Source: Rikenellaceae bacterium (GTDB lineage: Bacteria > Bacteroidota > Bacteroidia > Bacteroidales > Rikenellaceae). Taken from it: a stretch of 64,000 nucleotides of DNA. Position numbers and translations under genes: made by a program. The notes under the pieces were generated by a model that was not told the origin of the DNA, searched no databases, and saw only the letters and a list, made by a program, of their open reading frames with translations. Positions 14,330 to 32,768 of this stretch are shown one piece after another. The stretch's first letter is position 1. Each line of letters begins with the position of its first letter. Where the stretch lies: the NCBI GenBank assembly GCA_017936385.1, contig JAGBFQ010000024.1, positions 4,927 to 68,926 of the forward strand. The letters run 5' to 3'.

Positions 14330-14454
14330 CGTTGGTTAATTCATTCGACGATAGTGCAAAGATAACACTTGTCGCTCAACTGCCGCACTCCTCGAAATAA
14401 AAAAACGCAAAAAAACGTTCGATAATTAAACTTTTTAAGTACTTTTGTGCCATT

Positions 14455-14955
14455 ATGAACCACAAGATTACAAAATTAACAACCATGGCCGCTGCTCTGT
14501 TTGCAGCCGCCATCTCTCTGTGTGGATGCTTTCCCGAAAACGACGGCTCTCAAACATTCACCAAAGGAGACTTCATTATCGAAGGTCGAATTACCGACTA
14601 TTATCAGAAACCCATCACCAAAGTTCCCGATGGTTTCGAAGCCGACAGTGTAAGAGTGATTCTGTATCGTGTCACCGCCAAGGACCAAACTTTGGCAATC
14701 ACCCCAGCTGAGCAAATTTGCGACACGGTGTGGGCTGACGCAACGGGTCGTTACCAGGTTAAGGATAGCGACTTGACGGAGGTTTCTAATGTTTATGGCT
14801 TGTATATTAGTGATGCGGCTGACAAGTTTCACGCCGAGGAGCGTTACTTCCTGTCACAGGAGTCGACCATCTATGAACGTGGCGACAAATACGAACTTGT
14901 CACCACATTCAACTGCATTCTCTACCCTCACGACTGGCCCGGCCTCAACAAGTAG
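14455..14955 (+). CDS. hypothetical lipoprotein
   Basis: 166 aa with a signal peptide and lipobox-like AISLCGC. No recognisable domain. Confidence 0.55.
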   Translation: MNHKITKLTTMAAALFAAAISLCGCFPENDGSQTFTKGDFIIEGRITDYYQKPITKVPDGFEADSVRVILYRVTAKDQTLAITPAEQICDTVWADATGRYQVKDSDLTEVSNVYGLYISDAADKFHAEERYFLSQESTIYERGDKYELVTTFNCILYPHDWPGLNK

Positions 14956-14980
14956 ACCATTCAACCACAAAACAAAAAAA

Positions 14981-15014
14981 GCAGTCTGACAAAGTTTATT
15001 GTCAGACTGCTTTT
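14981..15014. terminator. bidirectional rho-independent terminator; marks the left edge of the AT-rich island and ends the T6SS-like operon
   Basis: GCAGTCTGAC-AAAGTTTATT-GTCAGACTGC hairpin, flanked by AAAAAAA on the left and TTTT on the right. Confidence 0.85.
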
Positions 15015-15041
15015 GTATATATGCATCAGGGAGAGGGGACT

Positions 15042-16346
15042 CTAATACGCCTCAACCCTTAATTTCACTCCTCCGATTGAGATTATATCACCAGGTCTTA
15101 TCTCCATTCCCTCTTGTGAAACCATATCGGAATTAACAAATGTTCCATTAAGCGAACGTGTCCATATTTCTTTAGACTCCTTGCACCATTGGCCATCACG
15201 GATATACCAAATATCCCTTTCGCAATCCAATTCCAAAGTACAATGACGACGAGAAATATACGTGGATGCTAATTCCGATAATTGTATCATATTAAAAACG
15301 GAATTATCAGCACGACCAATCGTTATAATACGTCTTGGAGACTGTGCAATTTCAGGCAATCTATAATATTTACCACAATCATCGCCTTGCATTACATGTA
15401 ACACCAATCCATTTTGAATAACTATTGGAGCTTCAACCTGACTATCTCTTGCGCCTTTGTAAGGATAACAGTTTGCGGGCATTTTATCGAGCAGTTCATC
15501 AATATTTCTTGCTCGTTTGCTTGCATCTGCTTGCAAACAAGCATTCAGAATACTTAACCACATTTCACTATTTTCATCCCTCAACAATAGGTTGCTATTC
15601 CACTCATTATTCCTTGCGCGTGTTTGATACAGAACCCAATCCGAGTCCGTATTCAATGGTCCAAAGGGCAACTCACCTGTCAATAGCTGATAAAGAATAA
15701 CTCCAAACGAAAATATATCAACCGTAGGCAAAATGGTAGAACATTTCTCAATGCGATATAATTCGGGAGCTCGATAAGCTTTCGTACTATCTACCGTTCT
15801 CATCTGCCTTGAGCTATTATCAATGGCGCCACGTCGCCCAAATGTCACATAATTAGTTATCACAGCATGGTCGCCCTCTGTAATCAACACATCCTCGGGA
15901 GTTAATTGACCATGTACTTTTCCCGATTTATGCAAATCTCTCAAACCATACAGAATCTCCTTCACTACTTTGATTGTATTCAGCCTTGGATTTGACATCA
16001 AGTGCGACAACTCTTCCGAACTACAATATTCCATCAACAAATATGGATTACCATTCACACGTCCCGAGTGTGTGATGGTTGTCAAATAATTACTCTTAAT
16101 CCTACAACTCTTTATTTCATTCTCGGCCGAATGCAACATACTTTGACGTAGACGAGATTCCACATCCCAAAGTTTGAGTAGTTTTAGAATATACTCTTTT
16201 CCTGAAGTATCATTCACTTTGAACTTTTGGTCGGTTTGAGAGAAACCCAATACCCGTTCCACTCTAAACTTACCATCTATCATATCATGCATGCGAAAAT
16301 CGCAGCGTTGAACTATATTATTTTTCATATCATATTCATTTTTCAA
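15042..16346 (-). CDS. Ser/Thr protein kinase-like domain (predicted pseudokinase) fused to a C-terminal FHA domain
   Basis: 434 aa. The kinase fold is recognisable (YILK lysine, YRAPE, DIFSFGVILYQLLTGELPF). The catalytic loop reads HGQLTPED instead of HRDLKPxN, and DFG is replaced by TNY. The C-terminal FHA is canonical (IGR...ISRRHC...SLNGTFVN). Confidence 0.85.
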   Translation of the reverse strand: MKNEYDMKNNIVQRCDFRMHDMIDGKFRVERVLGFSQTDQKFKVNDTSGKEYILKLLKLWDVESRLRQSMLHSAENEIKSCRIKSNYLTTITHSGRVNGNPYLLMEYCSSEELSHLMSNPRLNTIKVVKEILYGLRDLHKSGKVHGQLTPEDVLITEGDHAVITNYVTFGRRGAIDNSSRQMRTVDSTKAYRAPELYRIEKCSTILPTVDIFSFGVILYQLLTGELPFGPLNTDSDWVLYQTRARNNEWNSNLLLRDENSEMWLSILNACLQADASKRARNIDELLDKMPANCYPYKGARDSQVEAPIVIQNGLVLHVMQGDDCGKYYRLPEIAQSPRRIITIGRADNSVFNMIQLSELASTYISRRHCTLELDCERDIWYIRDGQWCKESKEIWTRSLNGTFVNSDMVSQEGMEIRPGDIISIGGVKLRVEAY

Positions 16347-16379
16347 GTATTACCCAAAGAGATTACAACACATCAACAA

Positions 16380-16823
16380 TTATATTTTTCGTGTTTTAAT
16401 ATTAAATTCAAAGAGTCGATTTCCCATTTTGATAATATCCCCCGGTTCCAACTTAATTCCGGCGCCAGCATGGACATAAGTTGAATTATCATGTGAACGG
16501 TCCTCAATGAACCAGTGGCCATCAGAGAAGAAGAAACATGCTTGTTCTTCATCATCTATAGACCTATCATGCGGCACGGTGTTTTGACGCGAAAGATAAA
16601 CCTCTGCACCTTCTTCATAAACCTCCTCCGGCATTTCACGCTCTCCGGGTTGTGCTATTGGTCGTAACGTACAATAAGGTATCTCCTCTTCATTGTAGTC
16701 AAACACTTCCTCCTCTGCAACAGGAACTTTTGTCACAATCTCATCTGTCATCTCTGCCAAGCAATTCGGGCAGATGTGCATCCCATTTATTACGGGATAG
16801 CCACAATTATTACATTGTATCAT
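16380..16823 (-). CDS. zinc-ribbon protein with a C-terminal degenerate FHA-like domain
   Basis: 147 aa. N-terminal CNNCGYPVINGMHICPNC and an acidic linker. The C-terminus (FFFSDGHWFIEDRSHDNSTYV...GDIIKMGNRLFEF) has FHA-like periodicity but lacks the S-x-x-H pair. Confidence 0.65.
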   Translation of the reverse strand: MIQCNNCGYPVINGMHICPNCLAEMTDEIVTKVPVAEEEVFDYNEEEIPYCTLRPIAQPGEREMPEEVYEEGAEVYLSRQNTVPHDRSIDDEEQACFFFSDGHWFIEDRSHDNSTYVHAGAGIKLEPGDIIKMGNRLFEFNIKTRKI

Positions 16824-16863
16824 TTGATTGATTATTAGTTCATTTTTGATTAAAATTCAACAC

Positions 16864-17610
16864 CTATATTGATTGGTTTAACATATACTCAAATGCTTTT
16901 TCAGCTTGTAGTTCTTCACGAGTAGCATTCCAACCATCATCTATTTTTGTCAGAATCTCCTTATTCTTATTTTCAATTTTCTCACCTACACGACTTATAC
17001 TATCTTTGGCCTTTTTAATAGTTCGAGCGAAATAGTCGTCAAATATTTCTATACATTTAAATTTTTCTGATGACTTTACTACCTTTTGAGTCAATGTTGA
17101 CACACTATATCCACAGCGAGAACAGAGTATATTTTTAAAATTTATAATAGCAGGTTTGATGCTTCCGACAGGAATATATTTAGCAAGCTTTGCACCTGGT
17201 ATAGCTCCTACTAGGTTTAAAAAACCACCAAGGACATCACCTACAGCAAAACACCCAACAGCCAAAGCTAAACTACAAACCATTCCAATTGGCCCTGGAA
17301 CAAAACTACCCACTTCTGCTGCCGACTTCAATATGACTAATTGTATATCAGCAACGCATTTTGACAAATCTGCTGCGATATTAATAATGTCATCTATATT
17401 GCCTTTCTTTAAAGTGATAGCTAACTTGTCTAATAGGGAAAGAATTTCATCCCATTTTGTAAGTATTATGCTTAATCCAAAAGGATTAGTCCATTTACAA
17501 TTTGCCAAATCGGACTTTATTCCTTCAACACCTGCTCTTTTTAAAGTAGTATGAAACTGCCTTATAACATTACTTAGGCCTTCTAGAATTTCAGTTGATA
17601 TAGTAGCCAT
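16864..17610 (-). CDS. hypothetical helical protein with a central glycine-zipper / predicted TM hairpin
   Basis: 248 aa. The hydrophobic Gly-rich core is VGSFVPGPIGMVCSLALAVGCFAVGDVLGGFLNLVGAIPGA, flanked by charged helical regions. No family recognised. Confidence 0.65.
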   Translation of the reverse strand: MATISTEILEGLSNVIRQFHTTLKRAGVEGIKSDLANCKWTNPFGLSIILTKWDEILSLLDKLAITLKKGNIDDIINIAADLSKCVADIQLVILKSAAEVGSFVPGPIGMVCSLALAVGCFAVGDVLGGFLNLVGAIPGAKLAKYIPVGSIKPAIINFKNILCSRCGYSVSTLTQKVVKSSEKFKCIEIFDDYFARTIKKAKDSISRVGEKIENKNKEILTKIDDGWNATREELQAEKAFEYMLNQSI

Positions 17611-17618
17611 GCAAATGA

Positions 17619-19307
17619 TTAAGATATGGTCAATTGATAACTAAAACTCTTTCTCAACTCAATATTAATCTTCAAATAATTGAAGAAATCGGAATTATTA
17701 ACTTCGGTTTTCAAGGCCTCCGACAGGATATTGAAATGTATGTTTATACACTTCTCAATATGGCCATCGATAGGAACATAGCTCTCGGAAAGTGATATAT
17801 TGCAAGAGTTGATGGCTTCTTCGCCAAAAGCACGCATGAATTCTACTTTGCAATATTGCAACAGGTCGATTTTCGTAAACAAACGGTCGTTGCTATTCAC
17901 AATATGCCTTACCAACTCTTTACGAGTATTCAAGTCCTTGATTTTATTTCGTCCTCCGGTTGCATCTATCAATGCTTCTATATCTCCAACAGCAGCATTC
18001 GTCGATGTTAATTTGCCTCCACGTCTTAAAAGATTACCACGTTCTCCATTTGTCGTAAAATATGTCAGAACCATTGGTTGCTGATTATTTTGAGGTTTGC
18101 GTATAGCATATGCACCCCCATACGAACGAGGACGTTCTGAACGATACTCATCAAGTGAATCATAAATCTGCATCATCGAATGACGCAACGAGCGCAACAT
18201 TGCACCATCATGCAACGAATTACTATCCACAAATGCGTAGTAATCATTCACATAGTGATGATACAGACTGGTTATATCTTCACGTATACGCTCGTTGTCA
18301 TATTGGCTCACGTCAAAATCTCGGATAAAGTAATCTTGAGCCAACTCTTGATTTTGTACAACCTCTAAAAAATATGTATCTGTTTTATCATTCTCCAAAC
18401 GTTGTATCGGTTCGCTATAACTCAGTTTCACATTTTGAATATCATAATTCACAACCGGAATGCTATTCAACTGTATGGCTGTTTCAAGTGGTAATGAGAT
18501 ATTTTCAGACGACTTAATTCGTATCCACAAAAAGCGATTACCTACAAACGGTTCTATTACCTCTTGTGCATAGGAGTCCATTATCCATGCCGGTATTTCG
18601 CCACGATTGAGAGTCCGTTTATTGGAGCACTTCCCAAATCGGTAAAGCCACAACCCATAATAAACCAAACTTTCTTTCCAAAACTCCTTTAGCATAAAAT
18701 TTGAATTCATTGCACATGGAGTATCATCCATCACCAACGACATAGGAATCTGCACGTCACCCACTTCGGCCATGAGTTGGTTCGATGGTAATGGATGTGA
18801 AAAAGCGATTGTGACATCTTCTAATGTATTAACTTCCCCCAAAGCGTCAAATGCCAACCAAATTTCATGTTTGTGTCTATTTTCTGGCCAAGTAGCTTGT
18901 AATGGTGCCCTATTGGGTTGCAACAACGTATTATTCATAAAACAGGCAGCAATACGTCCGGGAATAATACGACTCTTAAAAATAGGACGGTAATTACATT
19001 TTGTTGCCTTATATGAGAACGCATCATTCTCATCAATGTAATAAGGGGTGTACTCCTGTCCATTGCCTATGCTCACCACCGTAACAGCGGGCTGTGCTTG
19101 CAAATTACCATGTTGCAAAACTTGATTGCAAAACTGTTCTGATAATTTCGCAACCGTTTGGTCCATTTTTCTCTCAATCTCACAAGATTGATGAGCCATG
19201 GCAACGAGCATCATTTTGGCAATAGGGTCAGATAACGAAATACGCTGTTCGTCCTGTTCCAAGGCTCGTTGCAAGTCGACTACTTTATTTCTTACTTTTA
19301 TGTCCAT
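17619..19307 (-). CDS. tssF: TssF-like T6SS baseplate subunit (gp6-like)
   Basis: 562 aa. The N-terminal pattern DPIAKMMLVAMAHQSCEIERKMDQTVAKLSEQFCNQVL...QPAVTVV parallels the conserved TssF DPyVErL..gfAFL...kLDdE.PelTe..l..L.P.yl..iPs block. Its start overlaps the tssE-like stop by 1 nt. Confidence 0.7.
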   Translation of the reverse strand: MDIKVRNKVVDLQRALEQDEQRISLSDPIAKMMLVAMAHQSCEIERKMDQTVAKLSEQFCNQVLQHGNLQAQPAVTVVSIGNGQEYTPYYIDENDAFSYKATKCNYRPIFKSRIIPGRIAACFMNNTLLQPNRAPLQATWPENRHKHEIWLAFDALGEVNTLEDVTIAFSHPLPSNQLMAEVGDVQIPMSLVMDDTPCAMNSNFMLKEFWKESLVYYGLWLYRFGKCSNKRTLNRGEIPAWIMDSYAQEVIEPFVGNRFLWIRIKSSENISLPLETAIQLNSIPVVNYDIQNVKLSYSEPIQRLENDKTDTYFLEVVQNQELAQDYFIRDFDVSQYDNERIREDITSLYHHYVNDYYAFVDSNSLHDGAMLRSLRHSMMQIYDSLDEYRSERPRSYGGAYAIRKPQNNQQPMVLTYFTTNGERGNLLRRGGKLTSTNAAVGDIEALIDATGGRNKIKDLNTRKELVRHIVNSNDRLFTKIDLLQYCKVEFMRAFGEEAINSCNISLSESYVPIDGHIEKCINIHFNILSEALKTEVNNSDFFNYLKINIELRKSFSYQLTIS

Positions 19308-19837
19308 TATTTATTATTTAAAAATGGGTCCATAAAGAATTCTACCTCACGATGATACTCTCCCTCGCGAGTACCAATATATTCATTATGGGTTAGCAAA
19401 CCTTTAACTAACACTCGAACAACATATTTACTGTTCTCGCCACGATGGGAATACTTATTTTTCTCCATACTTAGTTGCACCTCTACTTCAAGTTGTTGCA
19501 GAAATGGGATATAGTATAGAATGCTATCACGAACACTCTTTTCGCATTGTTTGATGCCAGCTCGTGACATCTGCACCTTCTCCTCCCTGTTGTTTTTGTG
19601 TTTTACAATCTTAAAATCCGCTCCATGATTGAAATCAACCAAATTCATGGCAATAAATTCATTGTCCCAAAAGCTAAATCCAAATTCTTCATCAGCCTTA
19701 AAACGTCGAATACTTGTAAAAACAACTGTATCCACCCAATTGTCTATGACAGTGGACACTTGGGTTAACGGACGCTCAATCTGTAAATTCAATTGTTCGT
19801 CGTTGACAAAACGTATGGGAGAATTGCTATAATGCAT
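19307..19837 (-). CDS. tssE: TssE-like / gp25-like baseplate wedge protein
   Basis: 176 aa. Assigned from its position immediately upstream of tssF and weak gp25-like features (VIDNWVDTVVFT..., SVRDSILYYIPFLQQLEVEV). Sequence support is modest. Confidence 0.5.
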   Translation of the reverse strand: MHYSNSPIRFVNDEQLNLQIERPLTQVSTVIDNWVDTVVFTSIRRFKADEEFGFSFWDNEFIAMNLVDFNHGADFKIVKHKNNREEKVQMSRAGIKQCEKSVRDSILYYIPFLQQLEVEVQLSMEKNKYSHRGENSKYVVRVLVKGLLTHNEYIGTREGEYHREVEFFMDPFLNNK

Positions 19838-19839
19838 CT

Positions 19840-27586: not shown

Positions 27587-28993
27587 TTATTTAATTTCAT
27601 TTGTCCATTCTGTCACGCCGTTTTCTCCATTATGTCCTGTCAACTTAATGTAGAAGTTCTTTGCGGCAAAGAAGGGCTTCAATTCTATCTCAATCTCAAT
27701 ATCTTTGGTCTTTTCGTTACGAACAATCTTAGGATTGGAGTATCCCTCGATAAGTTTACCGGGACCTTTGTAATCCTCGAGAAAATCTATAACTTGTTCT
27801 CGAAGTTCTTGAGCTAACTTACCATTCCAATTTTTGAATGCTTCATCATTGAAGAAATTAGAGAATACCTTGCCTATCCAGTCGAATACGCGAACAATGG
27901 GATACTCTTGCAAACCAATAGTTGCACCATTATAAAGTGAGCGGTTCGAAAAGGCCATTACTCTATTTTCCTCAAATGTCATAGGTACGACACCCTTGTC
28001 AATCAAAGCGGTAAGCTCGGACTTGAGCAAATCAAGACGAGTGCCTTTTGCCATATCTATTGTGCCATATTTCTTTCCGGCAATACCTTGTGAAATCGGA
28101 GTTTCATCTGTATTGCTCATACGACCGGCAATAGCTGCGGAAGGGGGCAGGAATAAATCTTCTTCCTCCTCATTATTTTCATCCGATTTCTTACGACCAA
28201 GAATATAGTTACAAGCCATAATAACGTTGGCCAAGTAGGCGTCCGTATCACTCAAGTTGGCTTTATCCAAACCCTTGTTCAGAAGTTTAAGTGTAGGCGA
28301 GTCAGCATAATCCGTAACCAGCATTACTTTGTTTCGATACGCCATCTGTCCCCACATATTCACCACCTGCTTGCTACCCAAATAACCTGGGCTTACAAGA
28401 AGTGAATAATTCTCTTTCAACGACAGACGGTCGTAACTTCTGTTCAACTCATCACGTACTGCTGCAAATACACGACCATCAGGGTCTCCCAAATCCTCTT
28501 TATCTACGTTTATCAGATTCAGACATTGGAGTTTTGCTTGACCTGAGTTTGCAAAGAATTCTCCAAGCGAACGATAAGCAGTTTCCAATTTGCGAGTCTG
28601 CTCATGCACACTACCAAGATTTTGAAGTAGGTTCTTTTCAGCAGCCTTTGCAGCCTCTTGACACTTCTCTACAGCTTCAGACGCAGTTGTAGCCTCACTA
28701 TCAAGGATATTCAGCCACATGAGCAAATCTGTCTTCAAACGTTTACGTTGTTCTGCAAATTCACTATCTTGCAAAAAGATTTTTTTTGCAGCTCTGCTTT
28801 CGGGATTCATATTCTCCAATCCGTCTGCCATCGTTTCCAAAAGGTCGAAATCGCCATAGTCTTCCAAACCTTCTATGCTTTCTTTTAAACGTTCAGCAGG
28901 ATTGTCAATTTTCTTTATCTCTTCCAAATAAGCACTTTCGGCTGTTGTAACAACGCTCGCGGCTTGTGCTTGTGGCATCAATTCTTCTGACAT
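27587..28993 (-). CDS. tssC: TssC contractile sheath large subunit
   Basis: 468 aa from the internal Met (MSEELMPQAQ). The ORF-track start at 29092 would overlap tssB by 71 nt. Size and position after tssB fit, and the conserved-looking core is VTDYADSPTLKLL...ACNYILGR...GIAGKKYGTIDMAKGTR. Confidence 0.8.
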   Translation of the reverse strand: MSEELMPQAQAASVVTTAESAYLEEIKKIDNPAERLKESIEGLEDYGDFDLLETMADGLENMNPESRAAKKIFLQDSEFAEQRKRLKTDLLMWLNILDSEATTASEAVEKCQEAAKAAEKNLLQNLGSVHEQTRKLETAYRSLGEFFANSGQAKLQCLNLINVDKEDLGDPDGRVFAAVRDELNRSYDRLSLKENYSLLVSPGYLGSKQVVNMWGQMAYRNKVMLVTDYADSPTLKLLNKGLDKANLSDTDAYLANVIMACNYILGRKKSDENNEEEEDLFLPPSAAIAGRMSNTDETPISQGIAGKKYGTIDMAKGTRLDLLKSELTALIDKGVVPMTFEENRVMAFSNRSLYNGATIGLQEYPIVRVFDWIGKVFSNFFNDEAFKNWNGKLAQELREQVIDFLEDYKGPGKLIEGYSNPKIVRNEKTKDIEIEIELKPFFAAKNFYIKLTGHNGENGVTEWTNEIK

Positions 28994-29021
28994 AATTATA
29001 TCTGAATTTATCGGGTTTACT

Positions 29022-29471
29022 TTATTGATTTTTCTCCAACTCTGCAAGAAGTGCTTGCAATGCAACAACCAGGTGTTTCCTGCTTTCTTCATCTTCGAAT
29101 GCGCGTCTAAGAACTTTATTCTTAATCAACTGTTGCTCAATCGCATTATAAGAGTCAATAGCTGCTTTTTGTTGACCCAAATAAGCACTTTGCTTTATCA
29201 GTTCTTTATCATCAAAGTCCTTAATCGCATTGAATTTGAAATTCTCCTTTATAGGACGACCTTCCAAATCCAGCATTTGCACATTGCGTTTTTCGGGTTG
29301 GTAGCGTTCAAAGACATCCTCCATAGTTTCGGGTTGAAAAACTTCACCCGGTTTAACCGGTGCCACGTCCGTAAACTGGTCTACATAAAGAGTTCTGTTT
29401 TGTGGAAATTCAATAATCCCATCTACTGCCTCAGCATCGAGGACTTTCGAAATTACTGTTTTCTTTGCCAT
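29022..29471 (-). CDS. tssB: TssB contractile sheath small subunit
   Basis: 149 aa. FKFNAIKDFDDKELIKQSAYLGQQ resembles the TssB F.smdDF.P..va.qv..L block. It lies directly upstream of tssC. Confidence 0.7.
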   Translation of the reverse strand: MAKKTVISKVLDAEAVDGIIEFPQNRTLYVDQFTDVAPVKPGEVFQPETMEDVFERYQPEKRNVQMLDLEGRPIKENFKFNAIKDFDDKELIKQSAYLGQQKAAIDSYNAIEQQLIKNKVLRRAFEDEESRKHLVVALQALLAELEKNQ

Positions 29472-29498
29472 ATTAGTGATATTTTAAGTGTTTATTCT

Positions 29499-31751
29499 TT
29501 AATTCGAATGTGATACATCCCATTTAAGTTCATCTTGTTCACTTATTGTGAGGGTCACACTATCACCCTCGTTCAACTCACCTGAGATTATCATCTTTGA
29601 TAATGGTCGACGAATATCCTTTCGGAGAATTCCAAGAATAGGTCTTGCTCCATACTGAGCATTAAACCCACTCATTGCAATCTTGTGGACAGCCTTATCA
29701 TCAACAGTAAGTGTAATATTTTGTTCTTCCAAAGTTTTCAACAATCCCTTCAAGTGAATATTGAAAATCATCGTTACAATCTTCTCGTTGATTGGTGCGA
29801 AAGGAACAATTTCAGTAAGGCGAGCCAAAAATTCCGGACGGAAATGTCCTTGCATCACTTCAAGCATATCATTATGTGTCGGGACAATATTTTTTGCAAA
29901 TTGTTCAAACACATATTGACTACCAATATTGGAAGTGAAAATAATTAACGCATTAGAGAAATCGCCCACACGACCCAATCTATCATGTAACTTACCCTCA
30001 TCAAGAATCTGCAAGAATAAGTCAAATACTGAACGATGAGCCTTTTCAATTTCATCAAAAAGCACAATAGAATATGGTTTCTGGCGGATTTGGTTTACCA
30101 ACAAACCACCTTCTTCATAACCAACATATCCTGGAGGCGCGCCATAAAGCAGAGCCACCGAGTGCTCTTCCTTATATTCCGACATATCAAATCGAAGAAT
30201 TGCTGTATCATCCTGGAATAAAAACTCCGCTAATGATTTTGCAAGTTCGGTCTTACCTGTTCCAGTAGGACCGAGGAAGAAGAAACTTCCGATAGGTTGT
30301 CCTTTTTTGTTCAATCCGGAACGAGACTCATAAATCGAATCCAACACCGCTTTGATTGCATGGTCTTGACCGACTACACGTTTCTTCAGTATATCCTCCG
30401 CATTAACAAGTCTATCACGTTCTGCCGCTTGAACATTACCTAACGGGATACCTGTTTTTTGCGACACAACCTCCATCAGATGCTCGACCCCTACAATATC
30501 TTTCTTTTCTTCAGGATTCAAATCATTTTTGATTTTCAACAAGGCCATTGTCCTATCTATCAAATCTATTGCAGAGTCAGGCAGATGTTTTTCACTGAAA
30601 TATCTCTTGGCAAGTCTAATTGAATTTATCGTAAAATCTTCCGAGACCGTCAAATTATGGAATGTTTCGAATGATTTTACAACAGATTGAAGAATAATGT
30701 TGGTGGCATCAACAGAAGGTTCCTCGATAATAATACGCTCAAACTTGCCTAAGATTTCTTTATCCGTTTCTATATTCTTTGTAAATCCTTCTATCGAGGA
30801 GGTACAAATACACAACAAACCTTGATTCAACGAAGATTTCAAAAGGTTAATTGTACCATTGAGTGTACCCTGTTTATCCATTAATTTATCGAATGATTCA
30901 ATAACAAGAATCGCATTATCCTTGTCAGATAACTCATCCAATATTTTTTTCATTCGACCCTCAATTTCGCTTTTGTACGAAACGCCAATAGACAAAGCAA
31001 TTGTATCAAGTTCATAAACCTGTGCATTTTGCAGATAAGTAGGAACAACGCCTTTCGATATTGCTTGCACAAAAGCATTCACCAATGCAGTTTTACCGAC
31101 ACCCGATTCTCCTGTTATAAGAATATTGGATTTAGTTTTACGTCCAAGAATTCCATAAATTTCTCCAAGCTCTTTCTCAAAACCAATAGTTTCAGACAAT
31201 TGTCCATCGGATTGTTGCTGATTCTTAAGAATGCAATAACTCTCGATACTTTTACCCGCAGAATTTTTTGAACGTTTTTTCACTTCGCCATTAGATGTAT
31301 TACCTCCTATAACGTTTTGACTTCCACAAGCAGCAACAATACTTTCTTTTTGAAGCGGCAATGTTTTCAGCTGTTCAAATGTAAATCCGACACCAGGAGT
31401 TACAACTGCTATAAGTAGTGAGATAGCGTCAATCGACTCTTTCTTGGCTGCGGCACGAATACTATCAGCCTCACTAACAACTGCCTTTGTCAATGCTGAA
31501 AAACCTTTAGCTGAAGAATCAGAACTTTTCTTGGACATTTTAATTCGCATGTCAGCCCACTCCAATATATAGTAATAATCCGCATCTAAAGTCTTCTCAA
31601 CAAAAGAAACCAAACCAATATCTTTGTGTAAAAGAGCCTTCAAAACATGAGCCGGTTCTATGGCCGCATTCATATTCTCTTTTGCATACGCCTCTGCTAT
31701 CTGAAAAACTTCAATTACACTTTCGTCAAATCCGTCTAATTTATTGGTCAT
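29499..31751 (-). CDS. clpV: ClpV (TssH) AAA+ sheath-recycling ATPase, ClpB family
   Basis: 750 aa. Clp_N-like N-domain, D1 Walker A GESGVGKT and D2 Walker A GPTGTGKT with Walker B VLFDEIEKAH. The D1 Walker B reads ILVIESFD (degenerate). Confidence 0.9.
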   Translation of the reverse strand: MTNKLDGFDESVIEVFQIAEAYAKENMNAAIEPAHVLKALLHKDIGLVSFVEKTLDADYYYILEWADMRIKMSKKSSDSSAKGFSALTKAVVSEADSIRAAAKKESIDAISLLIAVVTPGVGFTFEQLKTLPLQKESIVAACGSQNVIGGNTSNGEVKKRSKNSAGKSIESYCILKNQQQSDGQLSETIGFEKELGEIYGILGRKTKSNILITGESGVGKTALVNAFVQAISKGVVPTYLQNAQVYELDTIALSIGVSYKSEIEGRMKKILDELSDKDNAILVIESFDKLMDKQGTLNGTINLLKSSLNQGLLCICTSSIEGFTKNIETDKEILGKFERIIIEEPSVDATNIILQSVVKSFETFHNLTVSEDFTINSIRLAKRYFSEKHLPDSAIDLIDRTMALLKIKNDLNPEEKKDIVGVEHLMEVVSQKTGIPLGNVQAAERDRLVNAEDILKKRVVGQDHAIKAVLDSIYESRSGLNKKGQPIGSFFFLGPTGTGKTELAKSLAEFLFQDDTAILRFDMSEYKEEHSVALLYGAPPGYVGYEEGGLLVNQIRQKPYSIVLFDEIEKAHRSVFDLFLQILDEGKLHDRLGRVGDFSNALIIFTSNIGSQYVFEQFAKNIVPTHNDMLEVMQGHFRPEFLARLTEIVPFAPINEKIVTMIFNIHLKGLLKTLEEQNITLTVDDKAVHKIAMSGFNAQYGARPILGILRKDIRRPLSKMIISGELNEGDSVTLTISEQDELKWDVSHSN

Positions 31752-31878
31752 ATCTAAACAATTAAAAGGTTAATGTAAGTTAGGTTATATTTACACAAAC
31801 TCACGGCAAACATCAAGACCTAATTTTAGTTATGCTGATAAACATTCATTCCAAGAACAAGTGTTTCACCATTCATAA

Positions 31879-32448
31879 CTATATTTTGCCAATATCATTT
31901 TTACTAATTTCCACACATATATATCCAAACAAATTCAGATATACACCAACCATTGGTTTTCTATCTTCAACATAACACAACTCCCCACACAATCCTTTCA
32001 ATGGTCCACGTACTATTTCTATTTTTTCGCCCAATTCAAACACTGTTTCAGCTACTTTGACCTTCGAGTCTGCATTACTTAACATAAATTTCAACCTATC
32101 AATCTGCTCTTCAGGTATTATTGCTGCCTCAGACTGTCCTGGATACGACAATAGTTTATAAACAAAGGAGTATGATTTTATCTCCTGCTCAACACGTTTA
32201 TTCACGTACGCAAAAACGACCATCGGGATAACAACCTTTTCTATTCTCTTTTTACGGTCGCTCCATTGGTGTATTTCAGTTTGTGTCGGCACATAATTTC
32301 GAATTCCCAACTTGGTCAATTTCTCACTCGTTTTCTTCTCTGTATTCATTTGAACGAGCATCGCAATCCAATATTTAGGGCACGCTTCGCGTTCGTTTGT
32401 CACATCAACAAACGAACGGTCGCATTTATTACACCCAATATTAGACAT
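31879..32448 (-). CDS. UpxY-family (NusG-like) transcription antiterminator; first gene of the T6SS-like operon
   Basis: 189 aa. NGN domain (WIAMLVQMNTEKKTSEKLTKLGIRNYVPT...VIPMVVFAYV) and a C-terminal KOW motif (GEKIEIVRGPLKGLCGEL). Confidence 0.8.
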   Translation of the reverse strand: MSNIGCNKCDRSFVDVTNEREACPKYWIAMLVQMNTEKKTSEKLTKLGIRNYVPTQTEIHQWSDRKKRIEKVVIPMVVFAYVNKRVEQEIKSYSFVYKLLSYPGQSEAAIIPEEQIDRLKFMLSNADSKVKVAETVFELGEKIEIVRGPLKGLCGELCYVEDRKPMVGVYLNLFGYICVEISKNDIGKI

Positions 32449-32467
32449 TTTATCGGCCTATTTCTAC

Positions 32468-32488
32468 ACATCTTCTAAAAGGAGATGT
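32468..32488. repeat. inverted repeat, left arm (IR-L) of the putative inverton
   Basis: ACATCTTCTAAAAGGAGATGT is the exact reverse complement of 32645-32665. Confidence 0.9.
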
Positions 32489-32598
32489 ATATAGGGCGTA
32501 TCATAATGTAAAATAATTAGTTTATGAATGCTAAAGTCAAATAAAATGGTGTAATATGTATAAAAAAGATGATTAAATAGATATTTATTTGTTTTATA

Positions 32599-32644: not shown

Positions 32645-32665
32645 ACATCTCCTTTTAGAAGATGT
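32645..32665. repeat. inverted repeat, right arm (IR-R) of the putative inverton
   Basis: ACATCTCCTTTTAGAAGATGT is the exact reverse complement of 32468-32488. Confidence 0.9.
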
Positions 32666-32722
32666 ACATTAAGTTATAAACGCAAAGGGGACGGGTTGTT
32701 TTACGAATAGTTTTCACACAAA

Positions 32723-32768
32723 ACGCCACGAGGTTCGACCATAATGGTCGAACCTCGTGGCGTTTTTG
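32723..32768. terminator. strong bidirectional terminator downstream of lpxA; marks the right edge of the AT-rich island
   Basis: 18-bp perfect stem ACGCCACGAGGTTCGACC / GGTCGAACCTCGTGGCGT with a 5-nt loop, flanked by AAAA and TTTTT. Confidence 0.9.

Follow-up and report, generated by a model that had tools for sequence, protein, structure and literature searches.

Here we describe the last gene of a type VI secretion system (T6SS) operon in a 64,000-nucleotide stretch of an uncultured Rikenellaceae metagenome-assembled genome (MAG; GenBank assembly GCA_017936385.1, contig JAGBFQ010000024.1, positions 4,927 to 68,926), referred to below as the window. The gene encodes a Hanks-type kinase fold that has lost its catalytic motifs, fused to a C-terminal FHA domain whose phosphothreonine pocket is complete. 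Judged from sequence comparisons, this pseudokinase-FHA protein probably acts in a PpkA/Fha-like T6SS switch, as its phospho-reader or scaffold; the writer kinase of that switch has been lost in this lineage.

An earlier note on the same DNA had placed an open reading frame (ORF) at window positions 15042-16346 (minus strand). The frame is real and intact, yet its start has to be moved to the ATG at 16328, as in database gene calls and homologues; the TTG at 16346 would add 6 residues. The resulting 428-amino acid form is identical to NCBI MBP3426125.1 (labelled 'FHA domain-containing protein' only) and to the ENA/Logan gene calls. Both domains are recognised by Pfam: Pkinase (PF00069) with an E-value of 1.5e-24 and 87.3 bits against a cutoff of 31.7 (amino acids 44-280 of the 434-amino acid form), and FHA (PF00498) with an E-value of 5.3e-12 and 46.4 bits against a cutoff of 20.7. 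No hydrophobic or predicted membrane segment was found in the protein, which is soluble. The gene, its domains and the former catalytic motifs are located as follows.

15042..16328, minus strand: pseudokinase-FHA gene, 428 amino acids from the ATG at 16328, stop codon at 15042-15044
15474..16286, minus strand: Hanks-type kinase-fold domain, catalytically degenerate, amino acids 15-285 (PF00069 match, Foldseek, profile alignment)
15045..15413, minus strand: C-terminal FHA domain, amino acids 306-428 (PF00498 match, pocket residues GR/SRRH/NGT)
16230..16247, minus strand: former Gly-rich loop, GeGsfG (GxGxxG) replaced by GFSQTD with only the first Gly left (alignments)
15891..15914, minus strand: former catalytic loop, HrDlKPeN replaced by HGQLTPED (Asp to Gln, Lys to Thr, Asn to Asp)
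15846..15854, minus strand: former DFG motif, replaced by NYV (alignments and translation)

The kinase fold itself is well preserved. An AlphaFold2 model based on a 99-sequence alignment, as proposed in the earlier note, shows a complete kinase fold with a mean predicted local distance difference test score (pLDDT) of 92.9 and a predicted template modelling score of 0.92, and has low confidence only in the activation segment (amino acids 168-175); with a 16-sequence alignment the pLDDT had been 55 only. Best matches found with Foldseek are Ser/Thr kinases, including Stk1, PknB and PknA (target-normalised template modelling score 0.74-0.78). The motif register was derived from three independent alignments, namely phmmer matches against StkP and MSK1, a MAFFT alignment that included over 60 canonical paralogues, and a hidden Markov model (HMM) of canonical sequences only. 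All three concur, and motif coordinates were checked by translation. None of them, the canonical-only HMM included, restores Asp, Lys, Asn and Asp at the catalytic positions, in line with the pseudokinase call made earlier. GFSQTD and HGQLTPED likewise stand where they had been placed before, while DFG, previously thought to have become TNY, is indeed lost but was read one residue out of register (the true equivalent is NYV). The structural landmarks named at that time hold as well: the beta3 Lys (K49, in YILK), the alphaC Glu (E71, the second E of SAENEIK) and APE fall in the corresponding columns of the canonical paralogues. Fold intact and motifs gone, it follows that the fold has been preserved and the chemistry has not. 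By every canonical motif the protein is a pseudokinase, as read from its sequence. Two changes are peculiar to the window: the Asn to Asp exchange in the catalytic loop belongs to its lineage (most clade members retain Asn, as HCQLTPEN), and its copy alone has a 3-residue deletion in the activation segment.

Close relatives share this loss. A scan of GTDB species genomes yielded 78 loci across Bacteroidota (from Bacteroidales to Chitinophagales, Cytophagales, Saprospiraceae and Balneolales), in which all homologues with at least 47% identity to the query are degenerate and all those with 45% or less are canonical (GEGxFG, ALK, E, HRDLKPEN, DFG, PPE). In the degenerate set the Gly-loop is lost, HRD has become HCQ, HGQ, HGH, HCN, HGR or HTR, the Lys is mostly replaced by Thr, and DFG by NY(V/I). 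Searching 1.84 billion 50%-identity representatives returned 148 clusters below 1e-30; degenerate motifs occur in three (P0121-P0123) of the 104 that are full-length. The 19 degenerate sequences are monophyletic in a neighbour-joining tree, without any canonical member inside the clade. Carriers are Paraprevotella clara, Phocaeicola and Parabacteroides, next to MAGs with the labels Bacteroides, Alistipes, Rikenellaceae and Lentimicrobiaceae; for the P. clara protein alone, the index of the assembly collection points to more than 3,000 blocks. Within the clade the ratio of nonsynonymous to synonymous substitution rates (dN/dS) of the pseudokinase domain is 0.04-0.13, equal to that of the FHA domain and indicative of strong purifying selection. 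Moreover, the replacement residues (H-C/G-Q-L-T-P-E-N and T-N-Y-V/I) are among the best conserved columns. Together, this selection and the conservation of the replacements point to a maintained pseudokinase instead of a decaying gene.

Such conservation might also be expected from an atypical active enzyme, in which nucleotide binding would persist along with catalysis of phosphotransfer or of a different reaction, for instance AMPylation. The pseudokinase label was at one time attached to WNK, CASK and SelO alike. The retained beta3 Lys and alphaC Glu fit this idea, as do the replacement residues (C/G-Q, T, N-Y-V), which are conserved and under purifying selection, and the Asn in place of the DFG Asp could still contact metal. 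However, Gly-loop, HRD Asp, catalytic Lys and DFG Asp have all been lost together, and the Pkinase HMM score amounts to 87 bits here against 146 bits in a canonical paralogue. The deep branches differ in their replacements (HGH, HCN, HGR, HTR, HCS), as if the chemistry were unconstrained. Even the beta3 Lys is substituted (by I, M or T) in a few clade members (P0022, P0121 and L013), which speaks against nucleotide binding. We therefore regard an active enzyme as very improbable.

The FHA half of the protein presents the opposite picture. Its phosphothreonine-pocket residues, GR338-339, S359RRH362 and N394G395T, are invariant across the degenerate clade; the Pfam match and the clade alignment thus bear out the claim that GR, SRRH and NGT are kept. 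Immediately upstream lies a small partner gene that accompanies the family almost everywhere (75 of 77 loci, canonical and degenerate, the window included).

16380..16823, minus strand: zinc-ribbon-FHA gene, 147 amino acids, conserved upstream partner (weak Pfam zinc ribbon and FHA matches)

In the T6SS-linked clade the FHA loops of this partner are non-canonical (SRQN, SIDDEEQA, DNST), and Chitinophagales relatives retain the S-N-G loop. Phosphothreonine binding by the partner's FHA domain may therefore not be of the classical kind.

What sets the window apart is found on the other side of the gene. The degenerate clade occurs solely at the 3' end of one T6SS-iii-like operon, and downstream sequence was available for about 35 T6SS-linked loci of other lineages (15 genome-derived and approximately 20 metagenomic). 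In all of these, a membrane kinase gene of about 552 amino acids lies within approximately 15 nucleotides 3' of the pseudokinase. They include P. clara, all 14 GTDB loci, the nearest relatives P0002 and P0003 (71-73% identical) and the roughly 20 metagenomic loci. The kinases look catalytically intact: 15 of 15 examined have GEGGMG, VAIK, HRD(I/V)DP(S/T)N, DFG and APE motifs, a conserved activation-loop LT(A/S/T)(T/S/A)G and one transmembrane helix. Next after the kinase, in most loci, comes a WG_beta_rep protein whose N-terminus has a hydrophobic segment resembling a signal. Two metagenomic loci (L111 and L168) seemed to lack the kinase but do have it; their assemblies are frameshifted and of low coverage. 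With a kinase beside it in about 35 loci, the pseudokinase is, on gene order, normally one half of a kinase/pseudokinase pair. The two are distant paralogues, whose kinase cores are about 30% identical.

The sensor part that lies downstream in the module varies, since in one metagenomic relative (L103, 5307-8128) the pseudokinase is followed by two membrane kinases in tandem, and a WG-repeat protein is missing.

None of these downstream genes is present in the window, where a tblastn search of all 64 kb turned up neither the membrane kinase nor the WG protein, a 94-amino acid ORF, PP2C or the FHA-protease, not even as remnants. The operon ends instead at a terminator, which is shared with a convergent host lipoprotein gene beyond which a LytTR two-component system is located.

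14977..15014, minus strand: intrinsic terminator with a 16-bp stem and T-run, 27 nucleotides past the pseudokinase stop, ending the operon

Five further contigs of the window species, from independent samples, show the same junction (six in total), and only this Rikenellaceae species is without both kinase and WG protein. In the tree, the clade members that branch off more deeply than the window and those that branch off less deeply all have the kinase, so that a lineage-specific deletion is the parsimonious reading: this lineage would have deleted the membrane kinase, the WG protein and the 94-amino acid ORF. The pseudokinase gene is terminal here because the genes downstream of it were lost. 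It had been stated before that the island contains neither a PP2C nor a second kinase and that the gene is the last of its operon. Both statements are correct for the window, but given the kinase in all other lineages they describe a derived state and not the design of the system. For the same reason the description of a 'rewired' system applies in part only: the missing PP2C is real (none within 10 kb in 15 T6SS-linked loci, with a PP2C cluster in 54 canonical-clade loci), the missing kinase is a derived loss.

Having lost its kinase and sensor, the gene could be a vestigial remnant, without function and simply not yet decayed, on an island that is perhaps heading to inactivation. Some observations seem to agree with this. 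The kinase-fold domain of the window has a distance ratio to the crown group of 1.56, against 0.84-1.26 for other operon proteins and 1.17 for the FHA domain. In addition, the Asn to Asp exchange and the activation-segment deletion occur in the window copy alone, and tssK carries a nonsense mutation in one strain (L082, see below). On the other hand, distances to outgroups are hardly higher for the window copy (0.416 against 0.396, and 0.445 against 0.439). The copy sits on a basal branch, which can account for the extra divergence without acceleration, and no clear acceleration is seen. No more than 2 amino-acid changes separate the copies in the six contigs and the four cluster variants, all with an intact ORF, and the key FHA residues are in place. 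For the window lineage itself dN/dS is uninformative, as dS exceeds 2 (saturated) against the nearest relatives and same-species variants are at most 2 residues apart. Overall, we consider a functionless remnant to be improbable.

The origin of the degenerate clade can be traced to a larger family. Homology to canonical kinase-FHA paralogues is end-to-end (HMM positions 1-430 align to residues 1-428), at 28-45% identity and with the same length (about 430 amino acids), domain order and upstream zinc-ribbon-FHA gene. The canonical members differ in their GxGxxG, HRDLKPEN and DFG motifs and in their PP2C, FHA-protease and membrane-kinase neighbours, whereas the clade of the window has lost catalysis and resides in a T6SS operon. 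On this basis it seems reasonably likely that the clade arose from a widespread Bacteroidota family of cytoplasmic kinase-FHA proteins and then joined one T6SS-iii-like operon.

In that parent family the genes form a Bacteroidota cassette made up of a zinc-ribbon-FHA protein, the cytoplasmic kinase-FHA, an FHA-transmembrane-trypsin-like protease, a secreted protein of about 290 amino acids, a membrane PP2C and one or more membrane kinases. Its components recur in 36-62 canonical-clade loci (L017-L081) of several orders (an example is L026, 9516-16000), with Pfam assignments confirmed, and no T6SS genes were detected within 10 kb of the canonical-clade loci. As a Ser/Thr signalling cassette it has apparently not been described so far.

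Taken together, a role as phospho-dependent scaffold or reader is the most reasonable one that can be inferred from the sequences. The earlier note had arrived at such a role too. Its grounds in the pseudokinase, the intact FHA domain and the T6SS operon stand, but the absence of kinase and phosphatase can no longer be taken as a design feature. In the complete module, the membrane Ser/Thr kinase would be the writer, which would autophosphorylate and perhaps sense the envelope via its periplasmic part and the WG protein. Pseudokinase-FHA and zinc-ribbon-FHA would act as reader and scaffold, with the FHA domain docking on a phosphothreonine; the ligand is probably the conserved LTATG activation loop of the kinase or else a baseplate protein. 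The dead kinase domain would serve as a protein-interaction or allosteric module. In this manner the assembly of baseplate and sheath could respond to an envelope signal, with no phosphatase dedicated to the pathway. In the window lineage, the pseudokinase-FHA may rely on a kinase from another part of the genome or may act without phosphorylation; a host kinase encoded outside the 64-kb window is a possible candidate.

A different explanation dispenses with phosphorylation altogether. Pseudokinase and FHA domain would then be interaction modules in baseplate or membrane attachment, and the kinase a losable add-on regulator. Intact pseudokinase-FHA and zinc-ribbon-FHA genes have indeed been retained after kinase loss in six independent contigs, close to the baseplate genes for TssK, a 176-amino acid protein and TssF. 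No TssNQOPR homologue is detectable in the island with Pfam or NCBIfam, and the FHA loops of the zinc-ribbon-FHA partner are non-canonical in the clade. A precedent for contact between a pseudokinase and FHA domains is given by EssB/YukC with EssC/YukB in the secretion system of type VIIb (T7SSb; PMC9600267). Against this, the pseudokinase's own FHA pocket is complete and invariant across the clade, the active kinase is co-inherited in all other lineages, and the pseudokinase-FHA has no predicted membrane segment. FHA domains that act independently of phosphorylation usually lose the phosphothreonine-binding residues. All in all, a purely structural part seems rather unlikely, though more plausible than a remnant. 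Related to it is a more speculative thought. Should this T6SS lineage lack TssNQOPR altogether, the module of zinc-ribbon-FHA, pseudokinase-FHA, kinase and WG protein would be what attaches a distinct T6SS-iii subtype to the envelope and triggers it, and the dead kinase would be the baseplate adaptor. We hold this to be a long shot. If true, the kinase-less Rikenellaceae variant would show that the adaptor works, or rewires to another kinase, without its cognate writer.

Several points weigh against the reader/scaffold role. ATP binding or atypical catalysis is unlikely but conceivable, given that the beta3 Lys and the alphaC Glu are still present, as is the catalytic-loop Asn in most relatives. 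The substitutions of the beta3 Lys mentioned above show that some drift is tolerated. The functional tie to the T6SS is drawn from conserved gene order alone. Furthermore, firing of the T6SS in this host is not assured, as the island has no recognisable TssNQOPR. Finally, strain L082 (the same species from another sample) has a premature stop in tssK: at L082 5491-6489, which corresponds to window positions 19840-20838, the gene is split into products of 42 and 285 amino acids that are 99% identical to the window. This suggests that some strains carry an inactivated system.

The island in which the gene is found is horizontally acquired, with a guanine-cytosine (GC) content of 36-40% against about 50% in the flanks. 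The pseudokinase-FHA gene closes an operon of 16 genes and 17.4 kb, all on the minus strand.

16864..32448, minus strand: rest of the T6SS-iii-like operon (Pfam and NCBIfam matches)

In order of transcription these genes encode a NusG/UpxY-like protein, ClpV, TssB, TssC, two Hcp, VgrG, a DUF4280/PAAR-like protein and an M23 peptidase, followed by a 316-amino acid protein, TssK, the 176-amino acid protein, TssF, a 248-amino acid protein, zinc-ribbon-FHA and pseudokinase-FHA. Of the parts expected in a Bacteroidota T6SS-iii, sheath, tube, spike, ClpV, TssK and TssF are present in the window. NCBIfam has no specific family for the pseudokinase, the zinc-ribbon-FHA or the 316-, 176- and 248-amino acid proteins. 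Neither Pfam nor NCBIfam gave a match to the membrane-complex proteins TssN, TssO, TssP, TssQ or TssR in the island (14400-32500), which leaves two options, namely a membrane complex with its genes elsewhere or a T6SS subtype with another mode of anchoring. Hydrophobic segments occur in four operon proteins only: ClpV (amino acids 106-125), the M23 peptidase (N-terminus), the PAAR-like protein (amino acids 173-198) and the 248-amino acid protein (amino acids 100-137).

Some further features of the island were observed. The gene for the 248-amino acid protein (16864-17610, minus strand) follows tssF and has a Gly-rich hydrophobic stretch at the residues just given. Its slot is variable, with an unrelated 260-amino acid protein in P. 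clara and homologues of 33-79% identity in other loci; the protein may be effector/immunity-type cargo rather than TssG. VgrG is 1048 amino acids long (23471-26617, minus strand), and Phage_GPD starts only at residue 501, leaving an N-terminal half of about 500 amino acids without a Pfam match. Directly upstream of the NusG/UpxY-like first gene, perfect 21-nucleotide inverted repeats (32468-32488 and 32645-32665) enclose 156 nucleotides. Such a layout is typical of Bacteroidales invertible promoters, and hence the whole operon, including the pseudokinase, may be phase-variable. A perfect palindrome of 23 nucleotides (arms 1 nucleotide apart) at 32720-32766 marks the border between the low-GC island and host lpxA and could be a terminator or the remnant of an integration site.

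The locus thus points to a widespread T6SS-iii-like operon with its own kinase, pseudokinase and double-FHA module. It also offers a clean evolutionary example of a bacterial kinase that became a pseudokinase on recruitment beside a second, active kinase. Comparing the writer-deleted window with its kinase-bearing relatives would bear directly on whether the reader needs its writer, and cultured carriers exist (P. clara and Phocaeicola intestinalis Sa1CVN1). To our knowledge, the proteobacterial T6SS-i is the only type whose firing is known to be controlled through threonine phosphorylation. In full-text literature searches, neither a pseudokinase nor a kinase/FHA module was found to have been described for a Bacteroidota T6SS. 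The words 'kinase' and 'FHA' are absent from a 2024 study of the membrane complex (PMC10781749), and a review from 2026 on the accessory genes of T6SSs mentions, for gut Bacteroidales, only the uncharacterised tagA, tagB and tagC, and no pseudokinase (PMC13584744).

The nearest functional parallel is the T6SS-i threonine-phosphorylation pathway of Proteobacteria, which consists of PpkA (TagE), Fha1 (TagH) and PppA (TagG) (PMC13584744). In both cases FHA proteins are encoded in the T6SS cluster and post-translational control of assembly is presumed (PMC13584744). Relatives of the locus resemble PpkA/TagR in having a single-pass membrane Hanks kinase with a periplasmic C-terminus and a periplasmic accessory protein. 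Differences are nevertheless considerable: the system here is T6SS-iii-like instead of T6SS-i, its FHA reader shares a chain with a dead kinase domain, the second FHA protein has a zinc ribbon, PP2C is missing from the T6SS-linked loci, and the kinase is missing in the window. The window has neither a membrane kinase, as for PpkA, nor a PP2C, as for PppA. Neither FHA protein matches a T6SS-i FHA family in NCBIfam or Pfam, with only the generic FHA domain in common. Because family-specific matches are absent, the pseudokinase-FHA is, at the level of sequence families, no orthologue of Fha1/TagH or PpkA.

EssB/YukC of the T7SSb is likewise a bacterial pseudokinase of a secretion locus that works with FHA domains: the pseudokinase domain of YukC binds the FHA domains of YukB/EssC, and YukC binds no ATP (PMC9600267). 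EssB, however, sits in the membrane, has an extracellular domain and shows a truncated kinase fold, whereas the protein described here is soluble and combines, in one chain, a complete Hanks fold with an FHA domain whose phosphothreonine pocket is kept. A specific sequence relationship to EssB/YukC was not detectable, and the top PDB matches are active kinases.

Pairs of a kinase and a pseudokinase are also familiar from eukaryotes, for instance STRAD-LKB1, HER3-EGFR and KSR-RAF. There, as here, purifying selection retains a dead paralogous kinase domain beside an active one, and this suggests that the bacterial protein has an allosteric or scaffolding role. The likeness is one of analogy only, the bacterial pair being distant paralogues as noted above. 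Overall, T6SS phospho-regulation and bacterial pseudokinases are both already known kinds, and among them the window stands as a natural writer-deleted case.

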